From positions 10,939 to 74,938 of the forward strand of contig CAYLHQ010000004.1 of NCBI GenBank assembly GCA_964383585.1: 64,000 nucleotides of DNA, in the 5' to 3' direction. The DNA comes from an uncultured Acidobacteriota bacterium (GTDB taxonomy: Bacteria > Acidobacteriota > Polarisedimenticolia > Polarisedimenticolales > DASRJG01). Position 1 is the first letter of the stretch; each line of letters starts with the position of its first letter. The notes under the pieces were generated by a model. It ran no database searches. It was not told the DNA's origin and was given only the letters and a program-made list of their open reading frames with translations. This document shows positions 22,791 through 61,204 of the stretch, in pieces. Position numbers and translations under genes: made by a program.

Positions 22791-25700
22791 CTACGGGCAA
22801 ACGGACAGTTCGGCATCCCTCCCCGGAAGTTCCGAGGGGGAACCGTCGTCCCACGTGGCGACGCCGGCACAGTTCCGCCCCCGAGCCAGATAGAAGAAGC
22901 CGTCACCCGGGTCGGGAAGGGCGGCGTCCTCGAGCGAGGTTCCCGGAACGTTCGACGCGAGGCAGGTGTCGGCCGCGGCCGTGAAGTCCCCGGCGGACGC
23001 CGCGAGGATGCCGATCGACCCTCGGGCGACGTCGTATCCGGTCGCCTCCGCCACCGTGCTCCAGGAGATCGCGACCCCTCCCGCCGAACGATCGACGGTC
23101 AACGACGGTGACCCGGCGGGGGCGACGAGGAGCGCACAGACGCAGTACCGGCCCCCGCTTCCGAGAAACCCCGCGGAACCGCTTCCGCCCCACACGAGCA
23201 TCTCGTCTCCGGTCCAGACGGCGCCGTGCAGCTCGCGCGGGCTCGGTGCTCCGAGCGTCGCGGTCGAAAACCACGCGTCGAGGTCGGGACGATACCGTCC
23301 TCCCGTACCTTCGAGGGTTCCGCCCGCCCCCCCCCAAAGCAGCATCTCGAGGCCGTTCCACACCGCCGTCGCCCGTTGCCTCGGACTCGGCGCGTCGGCC
23401 TCGCTGAGGGCGGTCCACGCGTCGAGCGCTGGGTTGTACCGCCCCCCGGAGGCGAGGTAGTCGAACTCGAATCCCCCCCACACGATCATTCCGCTTCCGT
23501 CCCACACCGCGGCGTGAGCGTACCGCGCGAGGGGGGCGCCGGTCGCGGCAACCGGCGTCCACGCGTCGGCCGAAGGGTCGTACCGGGCACCGTCGGCATA
23601 CGGGATTTGACCGTCCTGTCCGCCCCACACGATCATCTCGGATCCGGTCCAGACGCTCCGATGGTCGATCCGCTTCGCGGGAGCGCCCGCGGTTGAGATC
23701 GGAGTCCACGCGTCGGCGGTCGGCGCGTAGCGTCCGCCGTCGGCGAGGTTCCCCGACGCTCCCTGACCGCCCCAGACGATCATCGCGTCGCCCGACCAGA
23801 CGGCGGTGTGCCGGTAGCGGCCGCTCGGCGCCCCGGCGAGGCTCGTCGGCGTCCACGCGTCGGAAGCCGGGTCGTACCGTCCCCCGGAGGAGAGGAAGGT
23901 CGCGGCCCTCCCGCCCCACACGATCATCTCCGAGCCGGTCCAAACCGCCTGATGCTCGCTGCGCGCTTCGGGGGCGCCCGCGAGCGCGGTCGCGCTCCAC
24001 GAACCCGTGACGGGGTCGAATCGTCCTCCCGTCGCGAAGTTCCCGCCGATCCCGGTGCCCCCCCAGACGATCGCCTCGGCCCCGGTCCACACGAGGGTGT
24101 GACGGTCGCGGGCGTCGGGTGCGCCGCCGATCCGGACGGGCGTCCACGCATCGCCGGACGGGTCGTAGCGGGAACCGCTCGAGAGGTAACTGAGCGTGCC
24201 GCGCCCCCCCCACACGATCATTTCGGCCCCCGACCAGACGGCGGTGTGCTCGTAGCGTGCGGCGAGCCCCGCGGGGGCGATCGCGCTCCAGGCGTCCCCG
24301 AGGGGATCGTACCGGGCGCCGTCGTCGAGGTACGACGACGTGCCGACCTGTCCCCCCCAAACGACCATCGCGCTCCCGGTCCAGACCGCGGTGTGACGAT
24401 AGCGCGCGGCGGGTGCTGAGGTCGCGGTCGTGGGAGTCCAGCCGTCGGCGGCCGGGTCGTAAACGCCGCCCCCCGAAACCGGGCCCGCCGCGTCGCGACC
24501 TCCCCAGACGATCATCTCGCTCCCGTTCCACACGGCGGTGTGCAGGTAGCGGGCGAGAGGCGCCCCCGTCGCGCTCGTCGGCGTCCACGATCCCCCCACG
24601 GGATCGAATCGCGCGCCGCCGGCGAGCGGTCCCGATGCGCCCTGGCCTCCCCACACGATCATCTCGGTGCCGGACCAGACGGCGGTGTGGTCGAACCGTG
24701 CGGGGGCCGAGGCCGACGCGGGGATCGGCACCCAAACGTCGCCCGCGGGGTCGTAGATCCCGCCGTCGCCGAGAGCGCCCGCGGCGTTCCGTCCTCCCCA
24801 CACGATCATCTCGCTCCCGGTCCAGACCGCCGTGTGAAGGGAGCGCGCGCCTGGTGCGCCGCCCGAGGCGTTCGGCGTCGTCCAGGTGTCGGAGGAGGGG
24901 TCGTAGCGGGCTCCGTCCCCCAGGTAGCCGGCGGCGTTCCGCCCTCCCCACACCACCATCTCGCGACCGGTCCAGACGGCCGTGTGGTCGTAGCGAGGAT
25001 CGGGGGCGTTCAGTGCGCTCGTCGGTCGCCAGGCATCGGTCGCGGGGTCGTAGATCCCCCCGGAATCGAGCGCCCCCGCCCCGTTGTTTCCCCCCCAGAC
25101 GATCATCTCGGCTCCGGTCCAGACGGCGGTGTGCTGGAAACGCTCGTCCGGCTCCGACCGCATCCGCCCCCAGGTGTCGGGGGTGCAGGTCCCGACGGCG
25201 GGGCCTCCGAGCGGGAGCCCGGCCACGCCCTCGACGGGCGAGGGGAGGGGTGCCGGCTGCTTCGCGATCCAGAGGTCGAACGGGACCTTGTCCCAGGTTT
25301 CGATCGAGACCACGACCCGGCCGAATCCCTTGTCGAGCAGGATCGTCCGCGAGAATCCATCCGGTCCCTCTCCGAGAGGTCCCGCCCGGTTCACGGGAAG
25401 CGCATCGAGGGAAACGGTGTCCGTGTCGATCCCCAGACGCACCGCGAGGTCGCCGATCGTGCGCCGCCCGTCCGGTCCTTCGGTCGGGAGTCGGACCACC
25501 GACCGGCGCGGTGCCAAGCCCGCCTCCGCACGAGCGCGCACCGCGGCGTGGAGCGCCGGGTCCCACGCGTAGCGTTCCCTCGCGAGCCGCTCCGCGACGA
25601 TCGGCCGCGCGAGGGTCTCGGCGACGAGCACGGGGTCGTTGTCGAGGGCGGAGAACAGATCGCGTAGAACGTCGGGGCGCCGGGTGTCGCGCACCATCCG

Positions 25701-25979
25701 ATCGATTTCCCTCCGGAGCGCCGATGCGTCGATCCGGATCCCCCAACGGCGTTCGAGCGCGTCCGAGGCGGCGAGGGTCCGGAGAACCTTCGCGTGGACG
25801 GTCTCACGCGAGGGGGGGACGGGAGCCTCTCCTCCCGAGCGAAGGGCGGAATAGACCGACTCCACGCGGGTCCGCAGCTCGACACGGTCGTCGAGCGAGA
25901 GCGGTCGTGAGTCTTCGTCCGCGAGAAGAGAGGAAGGGAGCGCGAGGGAAACAAGGGCGAGGGCGGCGGCGTGACGCAT
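22791..25979 (-). CDS. secreted Kelch-repeat protein: N-terminal unknown domain, 14 Kelch-like blades, C-terminal FN3-like module
   Basis: Signal peptide MRHAAALALVSLALPSSLLA. Fourteen repeats of about 50 aa of the form H-T-A-V-W-T-G-x-E-M-I-V-W-G-G...G-G-R-Y-D-P-x-x-D-x-W. Confidence 0.85.
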   Translation of the reverse strand: MRHAAALALVSLALPSSLLADEDSRPLSLDDRVELRTRVESVYSALRSGGEAPVPPSRETVHAKVLRTLAASDALERRWGIRIDASALRREIDRMVRDTRRPDVLRDLFSALDNDPVLVAETLARPIVAERLARERYAWDPALHAAVRARAEAGLAPRRSVVRLPTEGPDGRRTIGDLAVRLGIDTDTVSLDALPVNRAGPLGEGPDGFSRTILLDKGFGRVVVSIETWDKVPFDLWIAKQPAPLPSPVEGVAGLPLGGPAVGTCTPDTWGRMRSEPDERFQHTAVWTGAEMIVWGGNNGAGALDSGGIYDPATDAWRPTSALNAPDPRYDHTAVWTGREMVVWGGRNAAGYLGDGARYDPSSDTWTTPNASGGAPGARSLHTAVWTGSEMIVWGGRNAAGALGDGGIYDPAGDVWVPIPASASAPARFDHTAVWSGTEMIVWGGQGASGPLAGGARFDPVGGSWTPTSATGAPLARYLHTAVWNGSEMIVWGGRDAAGPVSGGGVYDPAADGWTPTTATSAPAARYRHTAVWTGSAMVVWGGQVGTSSYLDDGARYDPLGDAWSAIAPAGLAARYEHTAVWSGAEMIVWGGRGTLSYLSSGSRYDPSGDAWTPVRIGGAPDARDRHTLVWTGAEAIVWGGTGIGGNFATGGRFDPVTGSWSATALAGAPEARSEHQAVWTGSEMIVWGGRAATFLSSGGRYDPASDAWTPTSLAGAPSGRYRHTAVWSGDAMIVWGGQGASGNLADGGRYAPTADAWTPISTAGAPAKRIDHRSVWTGSEMIVWGGQDGQIPYADGARYDPSADAWTPVAATGAPLARYAHAAVWDGSGMIVWGGFEFDYLASGGRYNPALDAWTALSEADAPSPRQRATAVWNGLEMLLWGGAGGTLEGTGGRYRPDLDAWFSTATLGAPSPRELHGAVWTGDEMLVWGGSGSAGFLGSGGRYCVCALLVAPAGSPSLTVDRSAGGVAISWSTVAEATGYDVARGSIGILAASAGDFTAAADTCLASNVPGTSLEDAALPDPGDGFFYLARGRNCAGVATWDDGSPSELPGRDAELSVCP

Positions 25980-27829: not shown

Positions 27830-27889
27830 CGTGACCTCCCAGGGGTGAAGCCGGAGAACGATTATGCACGCAAGCGGGGAAAGGGACGC

Positions 27890-37918: not shown

Positions 37919-37967
37919 AAAGGGGACTGGCACCTTTTCCGTTTTGGAAAAGGTGCCAGTCCCCTTT
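37919..37967. repeat. REP hairpin doublet (22-bp stem, 5-nt loop)
   Basis: AAAGGGGACTGGCACCTTTTCC gtttt GGAAAAGGTGCCAGTCCCCTTT. The right arm abuts and overlaps the TAA stop of gene 37966-39579. Confidence 0.9.
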
Positions 37968-40927: not shown

Positions 40928-41151
40928 GGATCCTCCCGAAACGGTCGTGAAACGAACCGAGAACATGCGTCGATAACCCTTTACGTGGCAACATCTTCGC
41001 CGCAATTCGGCACCGTTCAGAATCGCTGGCACCGCCTCCGTGGGCCGGCGTTTTCGCGTGGGCTTCGATCGTTGACGCTTTCCCGGGCCCGGTGGTACAT
41101 TTCCGCGGCTGTTCGGGCCGATTCCTCAGGGAAGAGGCCACGTGCGGATGT

Positions 41152-41455: not shown

Positions 41456-41484
41456 TTGCGTGTGTACACATATACGTGTACATT
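41456..41484 (+). promoter_or_regulatory. candidate hicAB promoter/operator
   Basis: TTGCGT (41456-41461), a 17-nt spacer, then TACATT (41479-41484). GTGTACAC palindrome at 41462-41469 and GTGTACA repeated at 41476-41482. The GTG at 41491 would be almost leaderless. Confidence 0.4.
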
Positions 41485-41490
41485 GGCCGC

Positions 41491-45151: not shown

Positions 45152-45768
45152 GACGCGCGAGCCCGCTGGCCGCGGCCACGCTCCTGGTGCCTGCCATGAT
45201 CGGCTCGCCGGTCCCGGCGCAGACCCACGAGGAGAAGACGACGATCGGCGTCGAGGTCGGGAGAATCACGATCGACGCGAGAAGCTTCGACAGCGACGCG
45301 ACTTGATTCAACCTCCGCGTCGGCCGCGAGCTCGGCGGATCACTCGGGGCGGAGTTGAGCCTGTTCGGGGCGAGTGCGGAGGAGGACCCCCTCCCCGGGG
45401 TGACGCGGAGCGTGAGAGAGATCGTCCTCGCCGGGAACGTGCTCTACGGCTTCCGCCCGCGCGAGAGCGTTTCTCCCTACTTCCTGGTCGGGGCGGGGAT
45501 CGGGAGTGTCGAGTTCGAGGCGATCGGCCTTTCCGACAGCGAGTTCGCCCTCGGGATCCACGGCGGGGCCGGATGCCGGTTCCGGTTCGGAGAGAGCCGT
45601 CGCTCCGCGATTCGCGTGGAGCTGTTGCTCGGCGTCATGCAGGGTGTCTCGTGGAGCACGGACACGGACGAGGGGTACGTACGCTCCGCGAGCGTCGGCA
45701 TCGGCTTCGAGCACGTGCTCGGCGAGCCCGGACGGACCCCTACGGCCCCTCCTGGTGGCAGGCGTTGA
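45148..45768 (+). pseudogene. outer-membrane beta-barrel (OMP_b-brl-like) protein interrupted by in-frame TGA (45304-45306)
   Basis: GTGA overlap with the upstream gene. The signal peptide is VRRASPLAAATLLVPAMIGSPVPAQT. The sequence ...SFDSDAT is followed by TGA, then FNLRVGRELGG...YFLVGAGIGSVEFE...ASVGIGFEHV continues in the same frame. Confidence 0.55.
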
Positions 45769-48700
45769 CCGCGCGGACCTCGAAGAAGGTCACCGCAGGC
45801 GTCGTGTTCGCCCCGTCCTCGAGGGTGAACGACGTCTCGGTCGTCGTGGTACCGAGAAGCTCCACGGTGCTCCCGAAGGACGGGTCGGCCGACTGCAGGA
45901 CGTGGTACCCGGCGCCCGCGACCGCGCTCCAGTCGAACGCGAGATCGATCCGGGCTCCGGCGTCGACGCGGTTCACGCGGAGGTCCGGCGCGGCGGTCGG
46001 CTTCGGCTCGCCGCAGGGGCGGGGTTCGCATCCGAACCCGCCGACGATCGTCGCGTGGAGGGTGCGCGGCCGGATGTAGCCGTCGGTCGTGACGCCGGAT
46101 CCGTCGACGTCCTGGACCGAGAGCGTCCACAGGCCGTTCAGCGGCTCCCCGGCGAAGTCGGCCATCGCGCCGGGTCCGTCCGGAACCCGATCGCGGTCGA
46201 AGCGGATCTGGATCCCGTACCCGTTCCCGGCGGTCCGATCGTGCAGGCGGACGCGCGTCCCCGACGGAGACACCAACTCGACGACGAGTTGCGTCGGGGC
46301 CTGGTGGAAGATGTCGAGCGTCACGTCGAGATCGGCGATCGTGCGAGCGTCGGCGACGTTCCAGTAGACCTCCACCGGAGCGGCGGTGAGGTAAGGGATC
46401 GGCACGATCTCGGTTTCGGGGTAGTCCCGGAAGGGCGTACCCATCGGGATGCGGATCTCACTCGAGAGAGGCGCGGAGTTCGCCGCGGTGGCGTCGAGGG
46501 CGAGGACGAGCTCCTCGCCGCAGGCCGCCTCTTCGAGCACCACGACCCGGTGGTGGGGGGGGAGGCTCTCCGCCGTCGTGCCGGGGTCGATCGCGGGCCA
46601 CGAAGCTCCCGGCCGGAGCACGCGGACGTCCCCCGGGGCGACCGCTCGCAGCGTCGCCGCGACCGACAGGGCGGGATCGGCGCCGGCGTTGAAGAGCGAG
46701 ACCGGAAGGTCGAACGTCTCCCCCGGCTCCGGGACGCCGTCCTCGCCGTCCTCGACCCGGTGCGAGGCCATCTGGAGCCGGCTTCCGGGCGGGGCGCCGA
46801 CGCAGTTCGAAACCCTGCTGAAGCAGGCCCGGTTCGCGGCGAAGGCCTCGACCCGGTAGTGGCGAAGGACCTCGGAATCGGCGCTTTCGTCGACGAACGT
46901 CGTCTGTCCCGCGGGAAGCGACGCGATCGGGACTTGCTGCCGGTCGCAGCCGAGTTCCCCTCGGTAGACGCGGGTCTCGGCGGCCCCGGGAACGGCGGTC
47001 CAGGACAGCTCGACCCCGGCGGGCGTCATCGCCCTCGAGAGCACCGGCGTCGGGAGCGACGGGCAAGACGAGGTGCTCTGGTTGGTCGCGTCGGTCACGG
47101 CGCCGCAGGCGATGTCGTGGCGCCGGAAGGCGGCGAAGAGCGCGGCGGCGTGCGGGGTTCCGTTCGCGAGGTTGCCGTCGTCGTCGTCGGCGACGCGCAT
47201 CCTCTGGTACCAGCTCGTCGAACCGCAGGAGTTCGAGAGGGTCGAAAGGCAGGTGTACGCGTCCCCTCCCGATCCCGGCCGGGTCAGGTACCAGAGCCGC
47301 TCGACGAGCTGCCAGGCGCTCGCCGCGTCCATCCCCGTCGCGGGAAGGTCGCGCGTCGCGAGGTCGTACATCGCCTCGCTCGAGACGTACGACTCGCAGT
47401 GGGGCTCGCGGCGGCACGGTCCGGAGAAACTGCTCGTGTCGGTGGGACAGTAGACTCGCACGAAGTTCGAGGGGGTCGCCGGGGTGTTCGACTCTCGCTT
47501 CGTCCAGTCGAACTCGCGAAAGCCGGTGCAGGTGAGGCACGTGTCGCCGTACCCGGTGCAGGTGCTCCCGTCGTTGTACGTCCCCTGGCCCATGCAGGAA
47601 TCGCGCGAGGTGAGAATCGCCACGATGTCCGAGTACGCCTCGGAGGGCCGGTCCCTGCCGCCGCCGTCGTTCTGGTCGTAGCCGTGGCCCCATTCGTGGA
47701 CGAGGATGTCGGCGCTCTCGCCGGTGTTGTTGCAGTTGCCTCCGGCGCCGTACATGTTGATGACCGACCCGCTCCAGTTGGCGTTGCAGCTCGAGGAGAG
47801 GTTGACGTTGACCGTGAGCGGGCTCCGGAGCCAGGCGTTGTCCGTGTGGTAGAAGCGGGCGAGCTCGGCGATCCGGTTGACGTGGTAGAACGAGGTCCTC
47901 GCCGCCGCGGTGTTCCCGTCAGACGCGCCGGGCTGGACCGTGCAGTTCTCGCCGGCCTTCATGCCGAGGTCGGCGCCCGAATCGCACGCTCCGATCTCCG
48001 AGGTCGTTCCGCACGCATCGGCGACGTGCACGTAGGGCCCGCTCAGGTTCGTCTCGAACGTCGCGCCCGGATCGAGACAGGTCAGGTTTCCGTACGCGTC
48101 CGCGTACGTTTCGGCCTGGCCCGATTCGGTCGTGTCGGCGAACGGCATCGGGAAGCCGGCGACCTCGCACCCCCCCTCCGCGCAGTCGCCGTCGGGAGAG
48201 CGCGGGAAGACGCCGCCGCGTACCGCCGCGTTCACGCTTCCCTCGTAGAAGGCGACGATCGAACCGTCGCGCGCGTCGACCTCGCCGACCCAGGAGGTCG
48301 GGGCGCCGCGCTCGTCGAAGCGGAACCGCCAAACGAGGACGTGGCGGATTCCCGCACCGCGCGGGCCGGACCACGCGCGCGACTCCCCGTCGTCCGGCTC
48401 GGCGGCCACCGGGAGGAGGATCAACTCCGGCTCCCCGGCGGGGACGAGGCGGGACGCATCGCCGCCCACGAACGAATCCAGCCGTCGGCGAGCGGAGGCC
48501 GCGTCGAGCGCGGGAGAGCCTCCGACGCGCGGACGGGTCCAGAGGTGGGCGCCCATGAGGACCATCCGCCCCCGCACGACGTGGAAATCGAGCCTCGCGT
48601 TCTTGACGGGGACGGAGTCGACGCGCTGGCGATAGACGAGCTGAACGTGACCCTCCCGCAGTTCGAGGCTCGCCGCGCGGTCGAGTTCCAGAAGATCGGA

Positions 48701-49087
48701 CCACGCGCCGAGCCTCGCGACGTTTTCCGCGAGGAACCTCCGCGCGATCGTGTCGAGATCGTCGAGCGTGGCCTCCGCGGCTCCGCCTTCCGGCACGAAG
48801 GGGATCCCGGGGCCCGAGAGCAGGGTCGGAAGGCCTGTGCGCTCGTCGAGGTACACGGTCCAATCGGATCCGTTCCGGAGGCGAAACTCCTCCCACGCCG
48901 CCCGGAGGCCGTCCGAGGAGGAGAGGCTTTCCAGCGGGATGGGGAGGACCGAGATCGCGGCACCGGCGCGGTGGAGGACCCGGGCGTCGAGGGGGGACGG
49001 GGCGCGCCGCTCGCGGGCGGCGTGGGTCGCCGTGAAAGCGAAAAGGATCGAAAGGACCGTGAGGGCGCTTGGAATCGGGCGGTTCAC
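45740..49087 (-). CDS. secreted zinc metalloprotease (HEXXH) with thermolysin/fungalysin-type propeptide, FN3-like, proprotein-convertase P-domain and C-terminal FN3-like module
   Basis: GTG 49087 overlaps the stop of the S8 gene (GTGA). Signal peptide VNRPIPSALTVLSILFAFTATHAA. Active site ADILVHEWGHGYD. P-domain: IADLDVTLDIFHQAPTQLVVELVSPSGT...LNGLWTLSVQD. Confidence 0.8.
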   Translation of the reverse strand: MNRPIPSALTVLSILFAFTATHAARERRAPSPLDARVLHRAGAAISVLPIPLESLSSSDGLRAAWEEFRLRNGSDWTVYLDERTGLPTLLSGPGIPFVPEGGAAEATLDDLDTIARRFLAENVARLGAWSDLLELDRAASLELREGHVQLVYRQRVDSVPVKNARLDFHVVRGRMVLMGAHLWTRPRVGGSPALDAASARRRLDSFVGGDASRLVPAGEPELILLPVAAEPDDGESRAWSGPRGAGIRHVLVWRFRFDERGAPTSWVGEVDARDGSIVAFYEGSVNAAVRGGVFPRSPDGDCAEGGCEVAGFPMPFADTTESGQAETYADAYGNLTCLDPGATFETNLSGPYVHVADACGTTSEIGACDSGADLGMKAGENCTVQPGASDGNTAAARTSFYHVNRIAELARFYHTDNAWLRSPLTVNVNLSSSCNANWSGSVINMYGAGGNCNNTGESADILVHEWGHGYDQNDGGGRDRPSEAYSDIVAILTSRDSCMGQGTYNDGSTCTGYGDTCLTCTGFREFDWTKRESNTPATPSNFVRVYCPTDTSSFSGPCRREPHCESYVSSEAMYDLATRDLPATGMDAASAWQLVERLWYLTRPGSGGDAYTCLSTLSNSCGSTSWYQRMRVADDDDGNLANGTPHAAALFAAFRRHDIACGAVTDATNQSTSSCPSLPTPVLSRAMTPAGVELSWTAVPGAAETRVYRGELGCDRQQVPIASLPAGQTTFVDESADSEVLRHYRVEAFAANRACFSRVSNCVGAPPGSRLQMASHRVEDGEDGVPEPGETFDLPVSLFNAGADPALSVAATLRAVAPGDVRVLRPGASWPAIDPGTTAESLPPHHRVVVLEEAACGEELVLALDATAANSAPLSSEIRIPMGTPFRDYPETEIVPIPYLTAAPVEVYWNVADARTIADLDVTLDIFHQAPTQLVVELVSPSGTRVRLHDRTAGNGYGIQIRFDRDRVPDGPGAMADFAGEPLNGLWTLSVQDVDGSGVTTDGYIRPRTLHATIVGGFGCEPRPCGEPKPTAAPDLRVNRVDAGARIDLAFDWSAVAGAGYHVLQSADPSFGSTVELLGTTTTETSFTLEDGANTTPAVTFFEVRAVNACHQEGP

Positions 49088-51816
49088 GGCTGCCCTCCCG
49101 AGTTCTCGGCGATCACGCGGTACACGAAGGACTCGGAAGCGAGCGCGGCATCGACGTCGACCCACCGGGTCGACGTCGCGGAGCCGGCCTCGACCCAGGG
49201 GCCCTGCGCCGACGACGCGCGTTCGATCCGGTAGAGCGTCGCCGCGTCGTGGCCCGCGTCGACGGGAGGGGCGTCCCACGTCAGCACCGCATGGACTCCG
49301 TCGAGGGAAACGCGGAGCGTGTTCCCGACCGGGTTGGGCGGCCGCTGAACCGGCGGCAGGTAGTCCTGGCAGTCGACCCATCTCCCGGTGACGTGCACCT
49401 CGTCGATCGCCGCCTCGACGACGCTGTCGGTGCCGCCGTCCGTTGCGGTGAAACGCAACCGCATGTCGTCGCTCGGCGCGATCACGGAAAGGAGATCGAC
49501 GCTGTACGTGCCCCATCCGTTCGTCGGCGTGACGCGCTGCTCGAGGAGCGTCCAGGTCGATCCGCCGTTGTTCGAGATCTCGGCCTTGAGCGAGTCGCTC
49601 GACGCGGAATCGTCGTAGTACCAGCGGTCGAAACGGAGGGACATCCGGTCGATGTGCGGCTCTCCGAACGCGGGGGAGTGGAGGTACGTGGAGCCGCCGT
49701 CGACGTCGTTCTGGTTCGCGCTCCCGCCCCCGCTCCCGGTCACCCAGCAGGCGACGCCGGGGGCCGGGGTCGTGTCGTCCTCGGGGTTGCTCAACCCGCC
49801 GGTGACCGGGACGCCGACCGGGTCCTCGCGAACCCAGGTCCCCTTGCTCGCCGTGCCGGGGTCGGAGGTCCAGCCGGCGACGGTTTCCATGTCCCAGTCG
49901 AGCGCGAGCGGCGTTTCCGTCCCGACGCGCACCCGGAAGGTCGAGCGGCGCACCGAGCCGTCGTAGCGAAACTCGAGGTCGAAGACGGCGATCGCGGCGC
50001 ACGCTCCCGGGTCGACCGAGAGCGAGAAATGCGGGGCGAGGCTCGTCGCGGTGCCCCCCGCGGGGAGGGGCGGAAAGTACCCGACGCGGTCATGGATCGT
50101 GATGCCCGGAGTGGCGGTGGTCAGGATCGCCTGGAGGCCGTCGATCGGGGCGTCGGTCCGGCTCTCGACCGTCACGGAGAGCACGACCTGTTCGCCGGGG
50201 TCGAGCCCTGCGTCGCCGTTCCCGAACGCGGAATCGTCGAAGGCGTGGGCGTGGTACACGACCCCGGACTCCACCGCGAGCACCGCGGGGTGGGCCTGCA
50301 GGAACCCCGCTCCGTAGACGTTGTCCTTGCCGGGGTCTCCGCGAGGTTCGGCCGTCGTCATCAGCGCCTGCGCCAGCTCCTCGGGCGTCGCGTCGGGGTT
50401 GGCCTGCAGCATCAGGGCGATCGTCCCCGAGACGTGGGGCGCGGCCGAGGACGTGCCGCTGAAGCTGCAGTAGCTCGGTCCGGGGCAGGTCGACGTCGTC
50501 CCGGATCCGTAGGCCGAAAGATCCGGCTTGATCAGCCCCAGCTGCGCGCCGTTCTCGTACGGGTAATCGAGGTACTCCGGGGGGTTGACGTGCGGGAAGG
50601 TCGGGTCGGTGTTCGCCTGGATGTCCTCCCAGGCGGAGGGACCACGCGACGAGGACGACGCGATGACGCCGGTGCCGAGGTGGATGTCTCCCACCGCCAG
50701 GATCGACGACGTGCCCCCGACGAGGGTCTGGTCCGGGTGAAGCCACGGAGGGGGACCGTTGGCCGGGGCGGAGACGTTGTAGGGAATCGGGTAGGTTTCC
50801 AGACTTCCGCCGTGGTTTCCGGCGGAGTTGACGTGGACGATTCCGGCCGCGAGTTCGACGTCGGTCTGGCGCCGGAATGCCTCGTAGTCGGGCCGGTCGG
50901 TCCACCACCAACTGTAGGACTGCGAGAGGACGTGGGCGCCGTGGGCGATCGCGTAGTCGCTCGCCTGCCACGCCCGCGACGGCGTGTCGCAGTCGATTCC
51001 GAGAACCATGATCTCCGCATCGGGGGCCATGCCGGTGACCCGCCCGTTCGTTCCGTCCCCCGCGACCTGTCCCGACACCTCGGTGCCGTGCGTCTGGACG
51101 ACCGGCGGGGTGCCGAGGCAGAAGTCCCATCCCCAGGTATCGTCCACGAATCCGTTCCCGTCGTCGTCGAGGCCGTTTCCGGGGACCTCGCCGAGGTTGG
51201 TCCAAATGTGGTCGGCCAGGTCGGGGTGCGTTCGATCCACCCCGTCGTCGACGACCGCGACGATGACCCCGACTCCCGTGTAACCGAGTTCGTCCCAGAC
51301 CCGCTTCGCGCCGTGAGCGATCACGTCCGGGTTCACCGTGGCGTCGGGGTTCGGACCCGAGGTGTCGCCCCCGGTCGGTCCGGTGTCCTTGCCGTCGGCG
51401 TGCGCCGTCGCGCGGTCGTACAGAACCCAACGGACCTCCGGAATCGCGGCGAGACGGGCGATCAGGTCCGGCGTCGCCTCGAGCGCGAGACCGTTGATCC
51501 CCCAGAGCACCCGGATGTCGTTCGCGGCCGCGGGTTCGGCGTGGATCTTCTCCCGCACCGCGCGCTGGCTCCGATCCGCCAGGGCCTTCAGGGTCGAGAC
51601 GACATGCGCCCTCCGGCGATCGCGGGTCATTCCCCGGACCTCGCGCAGGAGTCGCTCGCGGTCGGGGAACTCCTCCATGACCACCACGACCGGAAGGCGC
51701 TCCTCCGGCCCGCCGCCGTCGAGCGCGTCGCGCAGACGGGGGCTCGGGGAGCCCGCGGACGCGGGGATCGACGCGGTCAGGGCCGCAGCGAAAAAGACGA
51801 ACCGAACGACTCGCAA
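49084..51816 (-). CDS. secreted S8 subtilisin-like serine protease (910 aa)
   Basis: TTG start after GGAGGGG, followed by a signal peptide. Triad: D in VAVVDDGVD, H in HGTEVSG, S in SGTSSAAPHVSG. FN3-like C-terminus. Confidence 0.9.
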   Translation of the reverse strand: MRVVRFVFFAAALTASIPASAGSPSPRLRDALDGGGPEERLPVVVVMEEFPDRERLLREVRGMTRDRRRAHVVSTLKALADRSQRAVREKIHAEPAAANDIRVLWGINGLALEATPDLIARLAAIPEVRWVLYDRATAHADGKDTGPTGGDTSGPNPDATVNPDVIAHGAKRVWDELGYTGVGVIVAVVDDGVDRTHPDLADHIWTNLGEVPGNGLDDDGNGFVDDTWGWDFCLGTPPVVQTHGTEVSGQVAGDGTNGRVTGMAPDAEIMVLGIDCDTPSRAWQASDYAIAHGAHVLSQSYSWWWTDRPDYEAFRRQTDVELAAGIVHVNSAGNHGGSLETYPIPYNVSAPANGPPPWLHPDQTLVGGTSSILAVGDIHLGTGVIASSSSRGPSAWEDIQANTDPTFPHVNPPEYLDYPYENGAQLGLIKPDLSAYGSGTTSTCPGPSYCSFSGTSSAAPHVSGTIALMLQANPDATPEELAQALMTTAEPRGDPGKDNVYGAGFLQAHPAVLAVESGVVYHAHAFDDSAFGNGDAGLDPGEQVVLSVTVESRTDAPIDGLQAILTTATPGITIHDRVGYFPPLPAGGTATSLAPHFSLSVDPGACAAIAVFDLEFRYDGSVRRSTFRVRVGTETPLALDWDMETVAGWTSDPGTASKGTWVREDPVGVPVTGGLSNPEDDTTPAPGVACWVTGSGGGSANQNDVDGGSTYLHSPAFGEPHIDRMSLRFDRWYYDDSASSDSLKAEISNNGGSTWTLLEQRVTPTNGWGTYSVDLLSVIAPSDDMRLRFTATDGGTDSVVEAAIDEVHVTGRWVDCQDYLPPVQRPPNPVGNTLRVSLDGVHAVLTWDAPPVDAGHDAATLYRIERASSAQGPWVEAGSATSTRWVDVDAALASESFVYRVIAENSGGQP

Positions 51817-54348: not shown

Positions 54349-57300
54349 ATGAGGTTCGCCGCCATGCTCGGGGCGTTCGCGATGGCGGCGTCGTTCGCGC
54401 ACGCCGGCTCCCCTCCCGATCCCGCGGGCCCGGCGACGACCGACCACACCTTGCGCCTCGGGGGCTTTGCGTTCGACCCGCTTGCCGGGGAGCCCTCCCT
54501 CCCGGAGGGCTGGAGCCGGTCGCTGACGGCGGTTCCTGACCTCCATTTGGTGCAATTCGACGGACCGATTCCGGGCGACGCTCCCGCGGGGATGCGCTCC
54601 GCCGGCCTCGAGCCGGTCCGTTACGTTTACCCCGACACCTACATCGTGTGGGGGCGGACGCTCGACCGGGATTCGCTCCGAGGCAAACCGAGAGTCCGTT
54701 GGACCGGCGACTTTGCGCCGGCCTACCGGGTGCTGCCGGAGCTTCGAGACCGCATCGGCGAGACCCTCGACGTTCGCATCCTCATTTATCGCGGGGCGGG
54801 GACCGACACCGTCGTGGAGGCGCTCTCGCGGCTCGGATCTCCGATCGGACGCCGCACCGTTCTCGACGACACGCTCGAAATCGCCGGGTTCCGGATTCCC
54901 GGGGAGCGAATGCGTTTCGCCGCCGCGGTCCCCGGCGTCTACTCCATCCAACCGTTGACGGGCGAGTGGGCCGCACGGGCGGAGATGTCGTCGCAAGTGA
55001 ACGTCGGAAACGTCGACGGATCGGGCATCCCGTTTCCCGGCTACGCCTCCTGGCTCTCGAGCGTCGGCGTCGACGGGAACGGCGTCACCGTGGCGATCGT
55101 CGACGAAGGGGTCGATGAGGGCCACCCCGACCTCGCAGCCGGCCATCTCCCGTGCGTGGGGCCGAGTTGCACCGTGCCCGCGAGCATCCACGGCACCCAC
55201 GTCGCCGGGATCGTGACGGGAGACGGCACGAGCGGAGTCACGGATTCGTACGGATTCCTCCGCGGGCTGGGCGTGGCGCCCGGCTCCGCGTATTTCGAGC
55301 AAGAGTTCGTCATGTTCCGCTTTCTTCCCGGCGGGGTCTCGGAATTGATCGCCGACTCCCGCCGGAACGGCGCGACGATCTCGAACAACAGCTGGGGGAC
55401 TTCGTCGATCGCGAGGGGGTACAACGCCGACGCGCTGATGCTCGACATCGGCGTTCGCGATGCGGATCCGGAGGAACCGGGAAATCAACCGCTGTTCTAC
55501 GTGCAAGCCATGGGCAACGGCGGAGGCGGGGTCTCGTCGCAGGGGGCGCCCGACGAGGCCAAGAACGTGATCGTCGTCGGCTCGACTTGGGCGGCGGACC
55601 TCGAGGGGAACCCGATCCCGAACATCGACAGCCTTTCGGACAACAGCGCCCACGGGCCGGCCCTGGACGGGAGGACCATTCCCCACGTCGTCGCGCCGGG
55701 ATGCCGGGTCGACTCGACGACTCCGGACAACGGCGAGGGGTACGGCCACCTCTTCCAGTGCGGCACCTCGATGGCCGCGCCGCAGATCTCCGGCGCCGCA
55801 GCGATCTTCACCCAGCACTACCGGGGCCTGCCCGGCGCCCCGGGCGACCCGAGTCCGGCCCTGATCAAGGCGGCCCTGCTCGCGACCGCCCGCGACCTCC
55901 ACGGCAACCAGGACGCCGACGGCGCGACGATGGGCCACCGGCCCGACAGCAAGCAGGGATGGGGGCGGCTCGACCTGAGGGCGCTCGTCTCGCAGCCCGC
56001 GGGAAGCGTGCTCTACTTCGACCAGGGACGGATCTTCGAGGAGACCGGCGAGAACTGGCTGCGCGAGGTCGTGCCCGTCCAACCGAGCGAGCCGATGCGC
56101 GTGATGCTCGTCTGGACCGACGCGCCGGGACACGGCCTGGGAGGGAACACCCCCGCGTGGAACAACGACCTCAACCTGGTCGTCGACGTGGGCGGAAACT
56201 CCTACCTGGGAAACGTGTTCGGAGGCGACGGGTGGTCGACGACCGGCGGAACCGCGGACACCAGGAACAACGCCGAGGGCGTGTTTTTCGCCGTTCCCCC
56301 GGAGCGGGTCACGATCCGCGTGGTCGCCTCGAATCTCAACTCGGACGGCGTTCCGAACGCCGGGGACAAGATCGACCAGGACTTCGCCCTCGTATGCGTC
56401 AACTGCGCCTACGCCCCCGGATTCGACCTCGACCCCGTCCCCGTCACCCGGAACGTTTGTGCGCCGCAGACGGCCGTCTACGACGTCGAGGTCGACTCGC
56501 TGTCCGGCTATGTCGAGCCGGTGACCCTCTCGCTCGCGGGCCTCCCCGCGGGCGCAAGCGCCACCTTCGACGTGAACCCGGTCGTACCCGGCGGCCGATC
56601 GCTCCTCTCGATCGATCCCGGGACCGTCGCGGACGGCGACTACGCGTTGAGCCTCCACGGGGACGCGGCGTCCCTCGCCCGGGCACACCCGCTCTACCTG
56701 CGCCTCCGCACGGCGTCGCCCGCTCCGGCCGTCTTGAGCCTCCCCGCGGACGGCTCGACGGACGTCTCTCCGCAGCCGACCCTCGAGTGGACCGCTGTCC
56801 CGTGGGCGGCGAGCTACGTCGTCGAGGTCTCGACCGACCCGACCTTCCAGACCGTGTTCTACACGGCCTACTCGGAGACCCCGGTCCACAAGGTCCGGGA
56901 GATTCTGGCGCAGGGGACCCCGTACTTCTGGCGCGTGCGATCGCGAAACGCCTGCGGATTCGGGGCGTTCTCGACGGTTCGGAGCTTCACCACCCGCGAC
57001 CTTCCTCCCGTGCTCCTCGTCGACGACGACTGGGACTACTGGGGCGACTACCAGCCCGATTACCGAGCGGCGATGGACGCGCTCCCGCTTTCCCCCTACT
57101 TCTATCCCGTGACGTACGACGTCTGGGACGTGTACGCGGGGATGGCCGGGGAAGAGCCGGACTACGCGACGCTCGCCCTCTACCCGAAGGTGATCTGGTG
57201 GACGGGCCGGGAGGACTTCTACGCGGGGCCGGAGTCGTTCTCGGAGTCCGAGCTCGCGAGGTGGTTCGACGAGCGGGGAGGCTGCTTCTTCCTGACGAGC

Positions 57301-58026
57301 GCCGACTACGTCTTCGCGCGGGACGGCGTGAACGGCTTCATGCGGGAGCGCCTGGGCGTCGCGACCGTCGCCGAGGACACGGGGCAGGGCCAGGTGACCG
57401 GCCAGGGCACGGTGTACGGCGCGCTGGGGACGATCACGCTCAGGAACCTCAGCAGCGACTATTCCGACTCGGTGTCCCCCGACGCGACCGCCGAGCTGGC
57501 TTTCTCCGGGAATCGCGGGAATGCCGGAGTCGACAAGAACGGGTCCTTTTACCGGACGACCTTCCTGGGCTTCGGCATGGAGCGGTTGTTCTCCCCCGCA
57601 GACCGCCAGAAAACGCTGCTCGCGTTCCTCCAGTGGTGCGACGGACTTCCCGGCCTCGACGGCGACGGGGATGCGGTTTCGAACGGCGCCGACTGCATGC
57701 CGGGCGTGGCGGAGGCGTGGACCGCGCCCGCTCCCGTGACCGACCTGCGCCTGCACAAGGCGGAGAACGGATTCACCTGGTCGCAACCCGTGAGCGGCGC
57801 GGGGGCCGTCTACGACCTCGTGCGGAGCGGGAACGCCGGGGACTTCTGGAACGCGACGTGCGTCGCAGCGGGGAGGGAGGAGACCTCGGTGCCCGCGGCG
57901 TGGGACAGCGAGCCGCGCCCGGGAGAGGTCGTCTTCTATCTGGTGAGGGCGTCGAGCCCCTGCGGCACCGCGCCCATGGGCAACGCGTCCGACGGGACGG
58001 GCCGGCAGGGAACCGCCTGCCGATGA
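54349..58026 (+). CDS. secreted S8 subtilisin-like serine protease (about 1225 aa) with FN3-like and other C-terminal domains
   Basis: Signal peptide MRFAAMLGAFAMAASFAHA. Triad: VAIVDEGVD, HGTHVAGIV, GTSMAAPQISG. Internal FN3-like segment (YFWRVRSRNACGFG). C-terminal module ...VVFYLVRASSPCG.... Confidence 0.9.
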   Translation: MRFAAMLGAFAMAASFAHAGSPPDPAGPATTDHTLRLGGFAFDPLAGEPSLPEGWSRSLTAVPDLHLVQFDGPIPGDAPAGMRSAGLEPVRYVYPDTYIVWGRTLDRDSLRGKPRVRWTGDFAPAYRVLPELRDRIGETLDVRILIYRGAGTDTVVEALSRLGSPIGRRTVLDDTLEIAGFRIPGERMRFAAAVPGVYSIQPLTGEWAARAEMSSQVNVGNVDGSGIPFPGYASWLSSVGVDGNGVTVAIVDEGVDEGHPDLAAGHLPCVGPSCTVPASIHGTHVAGIVTGDGTSGVTDSYGFLRGLGVAPGSAYFEQEFVMFRFLPGGVSELIADSRRNGATISNNSWGTSSIARGYNADALMLDIGVRDADPEEPGNQPLFYVQAMGNGGGGVSSQGAPDEAKNVIVVGSTWAADLEGNPIPNIDSLSDNSAHGPALDGRTIPHVVAPGCRVDSTTPDNGEGYGHLFQCGTSMAAPQISGAAAIFTQHYRGLPGAPGDPSPALIKAALLATARDLHGNQDADGATMGHRPDSKQGWGRLDLRALVSQPAGSVLYFDQGRIFEETGENWLREVVPVQPSEPMRVMLVWTDAPGHGLGGNTPAWNNDLNLVVDVGGNSYLGNVFGGDGWSTTGGTADTRNNAEGVFFAVPPERVTIRVVASNLNSDGVPNAGDKIDQDFALVCVNCAYAPGFDLDPVPVTRNVCAPQTAVYDVEVDSLSGYVEPVTLSLAGLPAGASATFDVNPVVPGGRSLLSIDPGTVADGDYALSLHGDAASLARAHPLYLRLRTASPAPAVLSLPADGSTDVSPQPTLEWTAVPWAASYVVEVSTDPTFQTVFYTAYSETPVHKVREILAQGTPYFWRVRSRNACGFGAFSTVRSFTTRDLPPVLLVDDDWDYWGDYQPDYRAAMDALPLSPYFYPVTYDVWDVYAGMAGEEPDYATLALYPKVIWWTGREDFYAGPESFSESELARWFDERGGCFFLTSADYVFARDGVNGFMRERLGVATVAEDTGQGQVTGQGTVYGALGTITLRNLSSDYSDSVSPDATAELAFSGNRGNAGVDKNGSFYRTTFLGFGMERLFSPADRQKTLLAFLQWCDGLPGLDGDGDAVSNGADCMPGVAEAWTAPAPVTDLRLHKAENGFTWSQPVSGAGAVYDLVRSGNAGDFWNATCVAAGREETSVPAAWDSEPRPGEVVFYLVRASSPCGTAPMGNASDGTGRQGTACR

Positions 58027-58036
58027 GGGGATCGGA

Positions 58037-61000
58037 ATGAAAGCTCCCTGGAGTGTGATTGTCGCCGGGCTCGTGGCGCTCGCGTATTCCGTCCCGTCGG
58101 GCGCGTCCGACGGGAAGGTCTCCCTCCGATCGACTGTGATCGACGGCAGCCGAGCGGACGGCACGGTCCCGACCGCCGGACCGGGGGAGACCGCACGATG
58201 GGTCGTCCGGTTCCAGCGCAATCCCGGATGGCTCGAGAGGGCCGCGCTCGAGGCGGCGGGGGCCCGCGTCGTGGCTCCGCTCCCGGGGCAGGCCTATCTG
58301 GTCGACGTTCCGCCCGGTCGACCCGTCGCCCTCGCGGCGATCGCCGGAGTCGACTGGGCCGCTCCGTATCTGCCGTCGGACAAGATCGCTCCGGAGGTCG
58401 CGGCGTCGCTCGGCTCCGGCGACGACGCGGATCTCGCGGTCGTGGTTCAACTGTTCGGCGACGCAGACCCCCACACGGTGGCGGCCGAACTCCGCGCCTC
58501 CGGCTTCCGGGTTGCCGGTTCCGGGCGCGGGGGGACGTTCGGCCGCCTCGTGATCCTCGCCACGCCGGAGGAGGTGCGGAATCGGGTGGCCGTCCTGGCC
58601 GGGCGGAACGACGTGTTCTGGATCGGGCTTCGTGGCCGGCGGACGCTCGCCAACGACAACGCGATCTGGGTCGGCCAGTCCGGCTTGAACGGAGGGCAGA
58701 CGACCCCCGTCTTCCAGAAAGGAATCCGCGGCGAGGGACAGGTTGCGGCCATCCTCGACACCGGACTCGACGCCGACATGTGCTACTTCCGGGATCCGGT
58801 GCTCGGGCTTCCGCTCGCCAACATCGGAACCGGATCGGCCGCAGTCGATCCGAGCCATCGCAAGGTGCTCGCGGTCGATTTCCTTTGGAACGCCGACGAT
58901 CCGGCGGATCCTGCCGACTGGGACAACCAGGGGCACGGCACGCACGTGGCGGGAACGCTCGCGGGGGACGACCTCGCGAACCCGATCGTTCACGACACCG
59001 GAGACGGTCACGCGCCCGCGGCGAAGATCGTCGTGCAGGACGCCGGCTATGCCGCCGACGCGTGCGGCGATCTCCCCGGCATCGGGTGCCCGGTGACCGA
59101 TCTCAACCCCGTCTTCCAGCAGGCGTACGACCAGGGAGCGCGCGTCCACTCGAACTCCTGGAACGACAACGAGAACGCGACCGTGCAGAACACCTACACC
59201 GACGCCTCGGTCGACGTGGACGAGTTCATGTGGAACCACCCCGACTTCCTGATCGTGTTCGCCTGCGGCAACCATGCGCTCGGCGGCGTCGGCACGATGG
59301 GAAGCCCGTCGACCGCGAAGAACGGGGTGGCGACGGGGGCCACCTACAACGGCCAATCCTCGATCTACCTCTCCGACATCTCGGCATGGGGGCCGACGGC
59401 GGACGGCCGGATCAAGCCCGACGTCGTCTTCCCGGGCGCGAGCATCCAGTCGGCGGGGAACGACAGGAACGTCGGGACGAACAACTGTGGAACGTCCGGA
59501 ATGACGGGGACGTCGATGACCGCGCCCGCCGTCTCGGGCCTGGCCCTCTTGACCCGACAGTACTTCATGGAGGGATGGTACCCGACGGGGTCGCCCGTTC
59601 CCGCCGACGCCTTCACGCCGACGGCTGCGCTGCTCAAGGCGATGCTCGTCAACTCGGCCGTCGCGATCCCGTTCGACGCGGAGGGTCGGCCGATCACGAT
59701 CCCGTCGAACGAGCAAGGCTGGGGTCGCGTGCTGCTCGACCATGCGCTGCATTTCTCGGGGGATGCCCGCGGCCTCTGGGTCGCGGACGACGTCGGCGAC
59801 TTCACGTCCCCCTCCGACCCGCCGGTGATCTTCCAGCTCGACATGCAGGACACGGGGGAGCCGCTCGAGGTGACGCTCGCGTGGACCGACTATCCGTCGA
59901 CGACGGCCGCCGCGACCAACCTCGTGAACGACCTCGATCTGCGGGTCGACGGGCCGAGCGGCGGATTCTGGGGGAACGACTTCTTCCAGGGGGTCTCGAA
60001 GACCGGCGGATCGCCCGACCGCCTGAACAACCTGGAGCAGGTGCTGATCGCCGATCCCGCGCCGGGGAACTACTCGATCCAGATCTCGCCCCACGCGATC
60101 CCGGCCGGGCCGCAATCGTTCGCCCTCGTCGTGACCGGCGGGCGGTTCACGGTCACCTCGGGTCCACATCCGTCCTACTGGTCGCACGTCGTGGACGATT
60201 CGGGGCCCAACGGAAACGGCGACGGCGTGCTGGATCCGGGGGAGTCGGCGCGAATCCAGGTGACGCTCCGGAACGCCGGCGACGCGCCGGCGACCGCGGT
60301 CGTCGGCCAACTTTTCTCGGCCTACCCCGACGGACTCAAGGTCTACGGCGGGACCGCGTCGTACCCGAACATGGCGGTCGGAGCGCAGGGAACCTCGGCC
60401 TCCCCCCACTACGACGTCACGCTCGAGCCCTCGGCGCAATGCGGGCAGATCCTCGGCGCGACGATGCGGATCACGGGGAACGGGTTCGACGTCGGGAGCG
60501 CCTTCACGACCGACATCGGGGTTTACGAGAAGGACTACCCGTCCACCGACACGCCCCTCTCGATCCCGCGGAGCAGTTCGACCGGCGCGAATTCCTATCT
60601 CAGCGTGCCCGTGAGCTTCCCGTTGACCGAGGTGGACGCCACCGTCAACATCGCCCACACCGACATCGGGGACCTGGAGGTCCTCCTGTACCGGCCCGGA
60701 ACGAGCAACCCGCCGGTCTACCTGCACAACAACACGGGGGTCGGCGTCTCGGGAATCCACACGACCTATGACGAACTGACCGAGCCCGACGGCCCCGGCA
60801 GCCTCGACAGTTTCGTGGGCGGCGAGCCTCGGGGAACGTGGCGCCTCAAGGTGACCAACGCCGGCAGCAAGAACGGGACGCTCGAGAACTGGACGCTCCA
60901 CCTGAAGAGCGACGTGCCGTTCAACTGTACGCCGCGGGGATGCGGGCAGGGAGTGCCGCCTGCGGTCGCGAACACGCTGACGGTCGAGAAATCGGGGGCG

Positions 61001-61204
61001 GCGGACGTACGGGTCGCGTGGACCGGCGTGGGTGCCTCGAACTACAACGTCTGGCGATCGAGCGACGCTCAGTTCGGGACGGCGGTCTTCGCGGGGGCCT
61101 CCGGGGGGGCGACGAGCTTCACGGATGCGGGCGCGCAGAACCTCCCCGGTCTCCACTACTACCTCGTGCGCTCCGTCAATTCGTGCCGCTGGGAGAGCGA
61201 CTGA
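58037..61204 (+). CDS. secreted S8 subtilisin-like serine protease (1055 aa) with P-domain and C-terminal FN3-like module
   Basis: Signal peptide. Triad: AAILDTGLD, HGTHVAGTL, GTSMTAPAVSG. P-domain: IGDLEVLLYRPG...GTWRLKVTNAG...WTLHL. The end is ...HYYLVRSVNSCRWESD. Confidence 0.9.
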   Translation: MKAPWSVIVAGLVALAYSVPSGASDGKVSLRSTVIDGSRADGTVPTAGPGETARWVVRFQRNPGWLERAALEAAGARVVAPLPGQAYLVDVPPGRPVALAAIAGVDWAAPYLPSDKIAPEVAASLGSGDDADLAVVVQLFGDADPHTVAAELRASGFRVAGSGRGGTFGRLVILATPEEVRNRVAVLAGRNDVFWIGLRGRRTLANDNAIWVGQSGLNGGQTTPVFQKGIRGEGQVAAILDTGLDADMCYFRDPVLGLPLANIGTGSAAVDPSHRKVLAVDFLWNADDPADPADWDNQGHGTHVAGTLAGDDLANPIVHDTGDGHAPAAKIVVQDAGYAADACGDLPGIGCPVTDLNPVFQQAYDQGARVHSNSWNDNENATVQNTYTDASVDVDEFMWNHPDFLIVFACGNHALGGVGTMGSPSTAKNGVATGATYNGQSSIYLSDISAWGPTADGRIKPDVVFPGASIQSAGNDRNVGTNNCGTSGMTGTSMTAPAVSGLALLTRQYFMEGWYPTGSPVPADAFTPTAALLKAMLVNSAVAIPFDAEGRPITIPSNEQGWGRVLLDHALHFSGDARGLWVADDVGDFTSPSDPPVIFQLDMQDTGEPLEVTLAWTDYPSTTAAATNLVNDLDLRVDGPSGGFWGNDFFQGVSKTGGSPDRLNNLEQVLIADPAPGNYSIQISPHAIPAGPQSFALVVTGGRFTVTSGPHPSYWSHVVDDSGPNGNGDGVLDPGESARIQVTLRNAGDAPATAVVGQLFSAYPDGLKVYGGTASYPNMAVGAQGTSASPHYDVTLEPSAQCGQILGATMRITGNGFDVGSAFTTDIGVYEKDYPSTDTPLSIPRSSSTGANSYLSVPVSFPLTEVDATVNIAHTDIGDLEVLLYRPGTSNPPVYLHNNTGVGVSGIHTTYDELTEPDGPGSLDSFVGGEPRGTWRLKVTNAGSKNGTLENWTLHLKSDVPFNCTPRGCGQGVPPAVANTLTVEKSGAADVRVAWTGVGASNYNVWRSSDAQFGTAVFAGASGGATSFTDAGAQNLPGLHYYLVRSVNSCRWESD

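Follow-up and report, generated by a model that had tools for sequence, protein, structure and literature searches.

The window analysed here is a 64,000-nucleotide stretch, with a G+C content of about 70%, from an uncultured member of the Acidobacteriota, a phylum abundant in soils and sediments. It encodes seven large proteins with secretion-type N-termini, all of which end in a module of 70–120 amino acids (aa) homologous to the FN3 domain. An earlier note, made from the letters of the window, had described these endings as one and the same module on unrelated secreted proteins and had suggested that they might serve as sorting or anchoring tags, an ordinary binding FN3 domain being its conservative reading. 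The seven open reading frames (ORFs), the coordinates of their C-termini and their endings (FFYLARGRNCAG.., SYWYLVD twice, TFFEVRAVNACHQEGP, FVYRVIAENSGGQP, VVFYLVRASSPCG.. and HYYLVRSVNSCRWESD) were found as reported there. Pfam searches likewise returned the catalytic parts that it had described: Kelch repeats in one protein, CBM96/DNRLRE on both esterase-like paralogues (est1 and est2), P_proprotein together with an HExxH motif in the metalloprotease, and Peptidase_S8 in three proteins (S8_1 to S8_3). The features are listed below; endings stand directly before the stop codon, HMM denotes a profile hidden Markov model, and type A, est-type and short are the subfamilies described further on.

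22791..25979, minus strand: Kelch-repeat secreted protein of 1062 aa with a signal-peptide-like N-terminus (Kelch families, E down to 4.6e-127; N-terminal h-region).
22794..23144, minus strand: C-terminal domain of the Kelch protein, of type A, its FN3-like core followed by a Cys-locked tail ending ..ELSVCP (type A HMM 6.4e-21, aligned to the last residue; leave-one-out HMM 6e-4).
36174..37802, minus strand: est1, a secreted enzyme with an N-terminal putative catalytic domain and CBM96/DNRLRE (Pfam; GxSN and DxxH motifs).
36177..36386, minus strand: est-type terminal FN3 module of est1, without a G strand, the protein stopping at strand F with ..SYWYLVD (alignment and HMM; orthologue ends conserved).
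37966..39579, minus strand: est2, a paralogue of est1, their modules being 64% identical (Pfam, BLAST; 3055 homologues in the family).
37969..38178, minus strand: est-type terminal FN3 module of est2, ending ..SYWYLVD (alignment and HMM).
45740..49087, minus strand: HExxH metalloprotease of 1115 aa with an internal FN3 domain, a P-domain and a terminal FN3-like module (P_proprotein 1.8e-10; Peptidase_M4 0.0053, below cut-off).
45743..46036, minus strand: short P-domain-linked terminal module of the metalloprotease, a CxxxxC linker and FN3 strands A–F, ending ..VRAVNACHQEGP (leave-one-out 3e-5; 34% identity to that of S8_3, E 5e-10).
46796..47053, minus strand: internal complete FN3 domain of the metalloprotease, with G strand (E 0.001–0.1; matches unrelated FN3 repeats at 1.7e-13).
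49084..51816, minus strand: S8_1, a subtilase of 910 aa whose stop overlaps the metalloprotease start (Pfam).
49087..49377, minus strand: terminal FN3 module of S8_1, ending ..FVYRVIAENSGGQP (no partner in the window; best outside FN3 match 6.6e-11; orthologues end ENSGGxE).
54349..58026, plus strand: S8_2, a subtilase of 1225 aa (Pfam).
56725..56994, plus strand: internal complete FN3 domain of S8_2 (..YFWRVRSRNACGFGAFSTVRSFTT), with G strand (E 5e-6 to 4e-4 in every leave-one-out run).
57655..58023, plus strand: type A C-terminal domain of S8_2, a DGDGD..C loop, FN3-like core and Cys-locked tail ending ..RQGTACR (type A HMM 2.4e-26, aligned to the last residue; orthologues in loci L004–L009).
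58037..61204, plus strand: S8_3, a subtilase/proprotein-convertase-like protein of 1055 aa (Pfam).
60536..60913, plus strand: P-domain of S8_3 (PF01483, 3.1e-11; modelled as a jelly roll; Foldseek matches furin, Kex2 and ASP).
60920..61201, plus strand: short P-domain-linked terminal module of S8_3, an FNCTPRGCG linker and a six-stranded FN3-like sandwich ending ..VRSVNSCRWESD (modelled with strands A–F only; last 12 aa 91% conserved in eight orthologues).

All seven N-termini consist of a basic n-region followed by a hydrophobic h-region (Kyte-Doolittle KD10 ≥ 2.0). At the other end none of the seven proteins carries a hydrophobic stretch, the Kyte-Doolittle mean over 15 residues nowhere exceeding 1.0 in their last 40 aa. 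The P-domain assignments are firm: PF01483 scored 43.6 bits in S8_3 and 41.2 bits in the metalloprotease, against a cut-off of 21, and the S8_3 domain has the jelly-roll fold and the Foldseek furin/Kex2 matches listed above. PDB sequence searches with the est catalytic domain and with the metalloprotease returned no match; the label 'esterase-like' therefore refers only to the GxSN and DxxH motifs, from which the domain may be read as SGNH-like.

A common pattern is visible when the last 125 residues of the seven proteins are aligned. In searches of 678 six-frame segments of the window, leave-one-out HMMs recovered the modules of the Kelch protein (6e-4), est1 (1e-3), the metalloprotease (3e-5), S8_2 (3e-4) and S8_3 (1e-8), so that the shared pattern postulated by the earlier note is above chance. 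The S8_1 module was not recovered by these HMMs, had no BLAST match to the other six and matched unrelated FN3 repeats at 6.6e-11. Pairwise BLAST placed the modules in three groups, {S8_3, metalloprotease, est1, est2}, {Kelch, S8_2} and {S8_1}, and there are at least three terminal subfamilies among the seven. The claim of a single module was thus overstated, with S8_1 as an outlier, whereas at the level of the subfamilies there was good reason to suspect a dedicated terminal domain. The cysteines had also been counted somewhat generously, as a pair in five of the seven modules: the upstream Cys is indeed found in five, but the Cys after strand F in four (Kelch, metalloprotease, S8_2 and S8_3).

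The subfamilies differ mainly in how they end. In type A (Kelch and S8_2) a DxDGDGxxDxCDC loop, which is optional, precedes an FN3-like core whose strand C reads YDVxxGxL; the tail is ..NxCGxGR[WY]ETxSDGRDRxxxxC[P], the final residues being ..C[P/R] in the window proteins. The short form (S8_3 and metalloprotease) always follows a P-domain, has no G strand and ends VRxVNxCxxE[GS][DP]. The est-type modules end at strand F with YWYLVD, and S8_1 carries a more ordinary FN3 that is likewise cut off after the FG loop. A profile-profile comparison (hhalign) of type A with the short type gave 95.4% probability (E 1.7e-8), the flanking Cys and C..RWE included.

No Pfam or NCBIfam model matched the seven C-termini, even at E ≤ 10, and the Pfam fn3 model (PF00041) found nothing in the full proteins at E ≤ 0.01 or in the modules at E ≤ 10. 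Nor does Pfam fn3 find the internal FN3 domains of S8_2 (56725–56994) and the metalloprotease (46796–47053) at E ≤ 0.01; existing models seem to cover bacterial FN3 variants with Cys poorly. A profile of the seven modules nevertheless fell clearly within the FN3 superfamily. Against 24 canonical repeats hhalign gave 98.3% (E 2.5e-14), with 92.4% for type A and 97.3% for the short type, and the best PDB sequence match was the Clostridium thermocellum Fn3-like protein 3mpc (1.5e-5), followed by titin and FN3con. The homology that underlay the conservative reading is therefore borne out. The same profile also detects the complete internal FN3 domains of S8_2 and the metalloprotease, and among 1.84 billion representative proteins it had 20,034 matches at E ≤ 1e-3. 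The best 150 of these are giant proteins with 7–44 matched stretches that carry Pfam fn3; a re-scan found 1,899 domains in them, with a period of about 90–93 residues against 76 profile columns. The earlier note had proposed such a pooled HMM as its own check and had said that mostly internal hits would speak against it; formally this is the outcome, since the pooled HMM is a generic FN3 profile whose best matches are mostly internal tandem repeats.

The modules are not, however, complete FN3 domains. Because the hhalign alignment spans only columns 14–77 of the 97 template columns and leaves the last 20 unmatched, the G strand and the linker have no counterpart. An AlphaFold2 (AF2) model of the last 229 residues of S8_3, built from a 46-sequence alignment, reached a pLDDT (predicted local distance difference test) of 90.7 and consisted of the jelly roll of the P-domain and, after it, six strands, TVEKS, DVRVA, NYNVWRS, VFAGA, SFTD and YYLVRSV. 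These correspond to A, B, C, C', E and F of the seven-strand A-B-C-C'-E-F-G arrangement; there is no G. Foldseek matched this model to the P-domains of furin, Kex2 and ASP and also to FN3 pairs. In five of the seven proteins the stop codon lies 0–8 residues past strand F, whereas the canonical G strand is kept in both internal domains. A frameshift or assembly artefact was considered and rejected, as seven independent genes and orthologues in more than ten metagenome-assembled genomes (MAGs) stop at the same residues. A strand from the N-terminus that would complete the fold in cis was also sought by sequence comparison, and no common motif was found after the signal peptides. The modules are thus members of the FN3 superfamily by profile similarity, without a match to the Pfam fn3 model and without the seventh strand.

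Type A is distinct from generic FN3 repeats. Its HMM matches the Kelch and S8_2 domains over the full length of the model and, in the same scan, none of S8_3, the metalloprotease, est1, est2 and S8_1 at E ≤ 1e-3; 16 of the 1,899 generic repeats were matched, partially and never in the tail. Type A itself has no match in Pfam, NCBIfam or the PDB. Its Cys positions are conserved, and most members have the upstream DxDGDGxxDxCDC loop. A six-frame scan of all loci examined (about 20), regardless of position, found 22 instances, every one of them ≤ 21 residues from a stop codon and none internal. With the subfamily HMM in place of the pooled one, the expectation of the earlier note that hits would always be C-terminal is confirmed in 22 of 22 instances. 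Modules of this kind do stand at the end of unrelated signal-peptide proteins, in other genomes as well. In locus L017 six neighbouring genes encode type A proteins (GSDH-family, an est homologue, a 504-aa unknown, DUF6345/TSP_3, and unknowns of 391 and 1094 aa), L020 has three (an est homologue, the adjacent Kelch protein and a 1034-aa unknown) and L019 two; S8_2 orthologues also carry it. Signal-peptide-like N-termini are visible on the type A proteins with complete starts. Directly next to the 1034-aa protein of L020 lies a cluster of lanthipeptide type with Lant_dehydr_N/C, a methyltransferase and an ORF of 50 aa (L020 16833–21111).

The stop positions are conserved as well. The homologues collected with the seven-module profile are short gene fragments that show termini, not architectures, and they retain the endings NSCRWES[DP], NACHQEGP, ENSGGxE, YWYLV[DE] and QGTAC[x]. 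Ten Acidobacteriota MAG loci keep the same stop positions and also the S8_2–S8_3 tandem; the metagenome scan with profile A3 gave one locus. In eight orthologues, identity to the window S8_3 was 0.70 for the catalytic domain, 0.64 for the P-domain, 0.70 for the terminal module and 0.91 for its last 12 residues, the most conserved part of the protein. In two long-read MAGs the S8_2 orthologues are split over two reading frames (L007 539–1490, L013 1–1452); these are frameshifts, either assembly errors or pseudogenes.

What occupies the same place in homologues was read from a full-length search with est2, in the best 120 of 3055 homologues. After CBM96, 49 carry type A (FN3-like with the Cys-locked tail), 9 an est-type FN3 ending YWYLV[DE] or FFYLVQPGG.., about 23 dockerin-like EF-hand repeats (in proteins named Phycisphaerae or Planctomycetota), 11 a FlgD_ig domain or one like the C-terminal domain (CTD) of T9SS (type IX secretion), and 3 a transmembrane (TM) helix with a basic tail; about 13 have nothing or something else there, and 12 are of different architecture. 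As a positive control, three of the four T9SS-like tails tested passed the curated cut-off of TIGR04183; the dockerin-like tails matched NF041540 (GC-type dockerin anchor) below its cut-off. In the Planctomycetota-type homologues (P0281, P0282, P0302, P0321, P0328, P0357 and others) the dockerin-like modules, and another module of no assigned family, are Cys-bounded and end ..CP as type A does; a terminal Cys-Pro may be common to several unrelated C-terminal modules. By analogy, the contents of this slot in other lineages lend the sorting or anchoring idea indirect support; against it, the window modules matched no sorting-signal model and have neither a TM helix nor a basic tail.

Taken together, we favour, at a probability of roughly 0.45, the reading that these are lineage-specific, FN3-derived CTDs carried by many unrelated exoproteins and acting as retained, disulfide-stapled docking or retention handles. 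The proteins would cross the inner membrane by the Sec route, and the CTD would then fold in the periplasm, stapled by disulfides, and stay on the mature protein as a non-catalytic handle that might fix proteases and esterase-like enzymes to a component of the cell surface or matrix. It could in this way be the lineage's functional counterpart of the T9SS CTD, the GC-type dockerin or the TM anchor found at the same position in other phyla. A retained handle is favoured because the modules appear Cys-stapled, have a motif resembling a Ca loop, are as conserved as the catalytic domain and come in several subtypes. Several Cys combined with a conservation equal to that of the catalytic domain suggest a retained domain rather than a cleaved tag, and the multiple conserved Cys and the Ca-loop-like motif would fit a stable extracellular domain.

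A number of points weigh against this reading. No binding partner or ligand was identified. What unites the subfamilies is no more than the generic FN3 core, which makes one receptor for all of them less than obvious; the distance between type A and the short type is about the same as that of either to generic FN3. The want of candidate machinery described below counts on the same side, and a positional analogy is not function. The evidence is also bounded in extent: the structural model covers the end of S8_3, the type A scan about 20 loci and the slot comparison 120 homologues, and the signal peptides were judged by hydrophobicity alone.

A rival reading is that the modules are ordinary accessory FN3 domains without a targeting role, which would bind a substrate or polymer, aid solubility or stabilise, and would be in last place only since nothing follows them; the apparent family would then stem from domain shuffling in an FN3-rich lineage. 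In its favour, pooling the seven modules yields an HMM that describes FN3 in general, the similarity of each module to internal repeats in unrelated proteins equals or exceeds that to its partners in the window, two of the seven proteins have internal FN3 domains too, and FN3 modules occur widely in bacterial hydrolases, CtXyl5A (5g56) and chitinase A1 (1k85) among them. This account leaves unexplained, however, why type A is never internal (22 scanned instances, 49 homologues), why the G strand is absent from five of the seven terminal modules yet kept in both internal ones, and why other lineages have sorting or anchoring devices in the same slot; nor can a last domain act as a spacer. We regard it as rather unlikely.

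A true C-terminal sorting signal, which dedicated outer-membrane export or attachment machinery would read, as PorV/PorU read the T9SS CTD, and which would be cleaved or covalently attached, seems to us more doubtful still. T9SS CTDs are beta-sandwiches of this size too, and a bona fide T9SS sorting domain occupies the same slot in homologues. The strictly C-terminal position on many unrelated signal-peptide proteins in several genomes, the cargo-like gene clusters (seven in 38 kb of the window, six in 22 kb of L017) and the high conservation of the extreme C-terminus in S8_3 orthologues would all be expected of such a signal. Yet TIGR04183, TIGR04131, PF18962 and the CTERM models gave no match, at least three subfamilies with different termini coexist in one genome, and conservation equal to that of the catalytic domain together with potentially disulfide-forming Cys fits a retained domain better. 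No PorU, PorV, SprA or other T9SS genes, and no other export or sortase machinery, came to light in the window or seven related loci, the genome being covered here by 64 kb plus flanks, and T9SS is described as specific to the FCB (Fibrobacteres–Chlorobi–Bacteroidetes) superphylum (PMC12398890). A bolder version, to which we give equally little credence, is that the CTDs, and most of all type A, whose terminal Cys is invariant, mark the cargo of an export or surface-attachment system in Polarisedimenticolia-like Acidobacteriota that has yet to be described: a folded, disulfide-stapled sorting domain, analogous to the T9SS CTD and unrelated to it in sequence, that might be read at an outer-membrane secretion step or completed by strand donation. 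The speculation that the G-less FN3 is a strand acceptor, its exposed strand F edge completed by a strand of an anchor or scaffold partner as in pilin donor-strand complementation, would account for the missing G strand in the AF2 model, the last 20 unmatched columns and the conserved truncation points, but it is pure inference and highly improbable, as AF2 models the six-strand domain confidently alone, the type A tail (GR[WY]ETxS) aligns with the start of a G strand and no candidate donor protein was identified.

An uncatalogued family that occurs only at the C-terminus, and that takes the place of T9SS, dockerin or TM anchors in orthologous enzymes, gives a concrete handle on a cargo set. 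It also offers a route to any cognate machinery through phylogenetic profiling, and an annotation model that Pfam and NCBIfam lack. Should the CTD prove to be only a binding domain, it would still be a distinct G-strand-less, disulfide-stapled FN3 variant.

The rest of the window is ordinary chromosome (RND efflux, an ABC transporter, RNase PH, a multihaem cytochrome) with some mobile elements, part of a 275-kb metagenomic contig (JGI 3300043177 Ga0484859_0000031). The close relatives of its proteins are found in Acidobacteriota MAGs only, of which one bears the name Candidatus Polarisedimenticolaceae. Two transposases, one of the Y1_Tnp family and one of rve integrase type, border the tandem duplicate est1/est2, with a HicA toxin/helix-turn-helix antitoxin pair near by (35304–35987, 39647–40966 and 41476–42083); the pair sits in a mobile, variable patch. 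The stop codon of S8_1 overlaps the GTG start of the metalloprotease by four bases (49084–49087), which points to a translationally coupled operon. The plus strand between the two pairs of proteases encodes a stand-alone response regulator (52090–52518) and a 571-aa Cys-rich secreted protein (52554–54269); the latter belongs to no family in Pfam or NCBIfam and lacks a terminal FN3 module. At 26576–27829 the minus strand encodes a multihaem cytochrome of c type that is secreted (Multi-haem_cyto, 4.5e-26); extracellular or periplasmic cytochromes matching it have been reported for marine Polarisedimenticolia and Thermoanaerobaculia, and this lineage is believed to subsist on extracellular protein (PMC8528874). 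Adjoining the Kelch gene, at 20197–21816 on the minus strand, is a multi-pass membrane protein with a weak PMT_2 match (GT-C protein mannosyltransferase-like; E 0.004, below cut-off), and a clear PMT/PMT_2 gene adjoins the est homologue in L017 (8430–9977). Across the window and L015–L020, nothing in the neighbourhoods recurs but this PMT_2-like GT-C gene, in two of the seven places; it could point to periplasmic glycosylation of these exoproteins, or be coincidence.

In the searchable literature we found no description of an FN3-type CTD, of a G-less FN3 or of secretion in this lineage. The modules were compared with the known systems that resemble them. The FN3 domains of secreted bacterial hydrolases (PF00041; 3mpc, CtXyl5A 5g56, chitinase A1 1k85) are closest in sequence: W in strand B, Y-x-V-x-R in strand C, T-x-F-x-D in strand E and YYYxVxAxN in strand F are shared, profile-profile probabilities are 92–98%, and both occur on secreted enzymes. 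The window modules differ in that the G strand is missing or replaced with a Cys-locked tail, in their conserved flanking Cys, and in being strictly terminal, whereas canonical domains are mostly internal or in tandem. The kexin/furin-like P-domain extensions (PF01483) share a bona fide P-domain, directly before the module in S8_3 and the metalloprotease, but furin, Kex2 and ASP lack the CxxxxC linker and G-less FN3 that follow it in the window. PEP-CTERM, MYXO-CTERM and GlyGly-CTERM are tripartite C-terminal sorting signals (PMC1569441, PMC11980579, PMC3237569); like the window modules they form many paralogous C-terminal tags on unrelated exported proteins per genome, and MYXO-CTERM has an invariant Cys near the C-terminus. 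They are, however, about 25–35 aa long with a TM helix and a basic cluster, in contrast to a folded domain of 70–120 aa; the window modules showed no motif plus TM plus basic cluster and matched no NCBIfam CTERM model. GC-type dockerin anchors (NF041540; dockerin PF00404) are C-terminal, Ca-binding and Cys-bounded, end ..C(P) and fill the same slot in Planctomycetota homologues, and type A resembles them in its upstream DxDGDGxxD loop and its CP end. A dockerin is a duplicated EF-hand helix pair, whereas the window modules have a beta-sandwich core, type A has a single DxDGDGxxD loop, and neither PF00404 nor NF041540 matched. The T9SS type A sorting domain (TIGR04183 Por_Secre_tail/PF18962, related to FlgD_ig PF13860) is likewise a beta-sandwich of about 70–100 aa at the extreme C-terminus of diverse Sec-exported proteins, and it takes the identical slot in est2 homologues of other lineages; the window modules differ from it in their motifs, in Cys richness and in their Acidobacteriota rather than FCB host, and at E ≤ 10 they matched none of TIGR04183, TIGR04131 and PF18962. 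Because the defining features of each were looked for and not found, the modules do not belong to the T9SS CTDs, the dockerins or the signals of PEP-CTERM/MYXO-CTERM type; for how they might work, T9SS CTDs and GC-dockerin anchors offer the best analogy.

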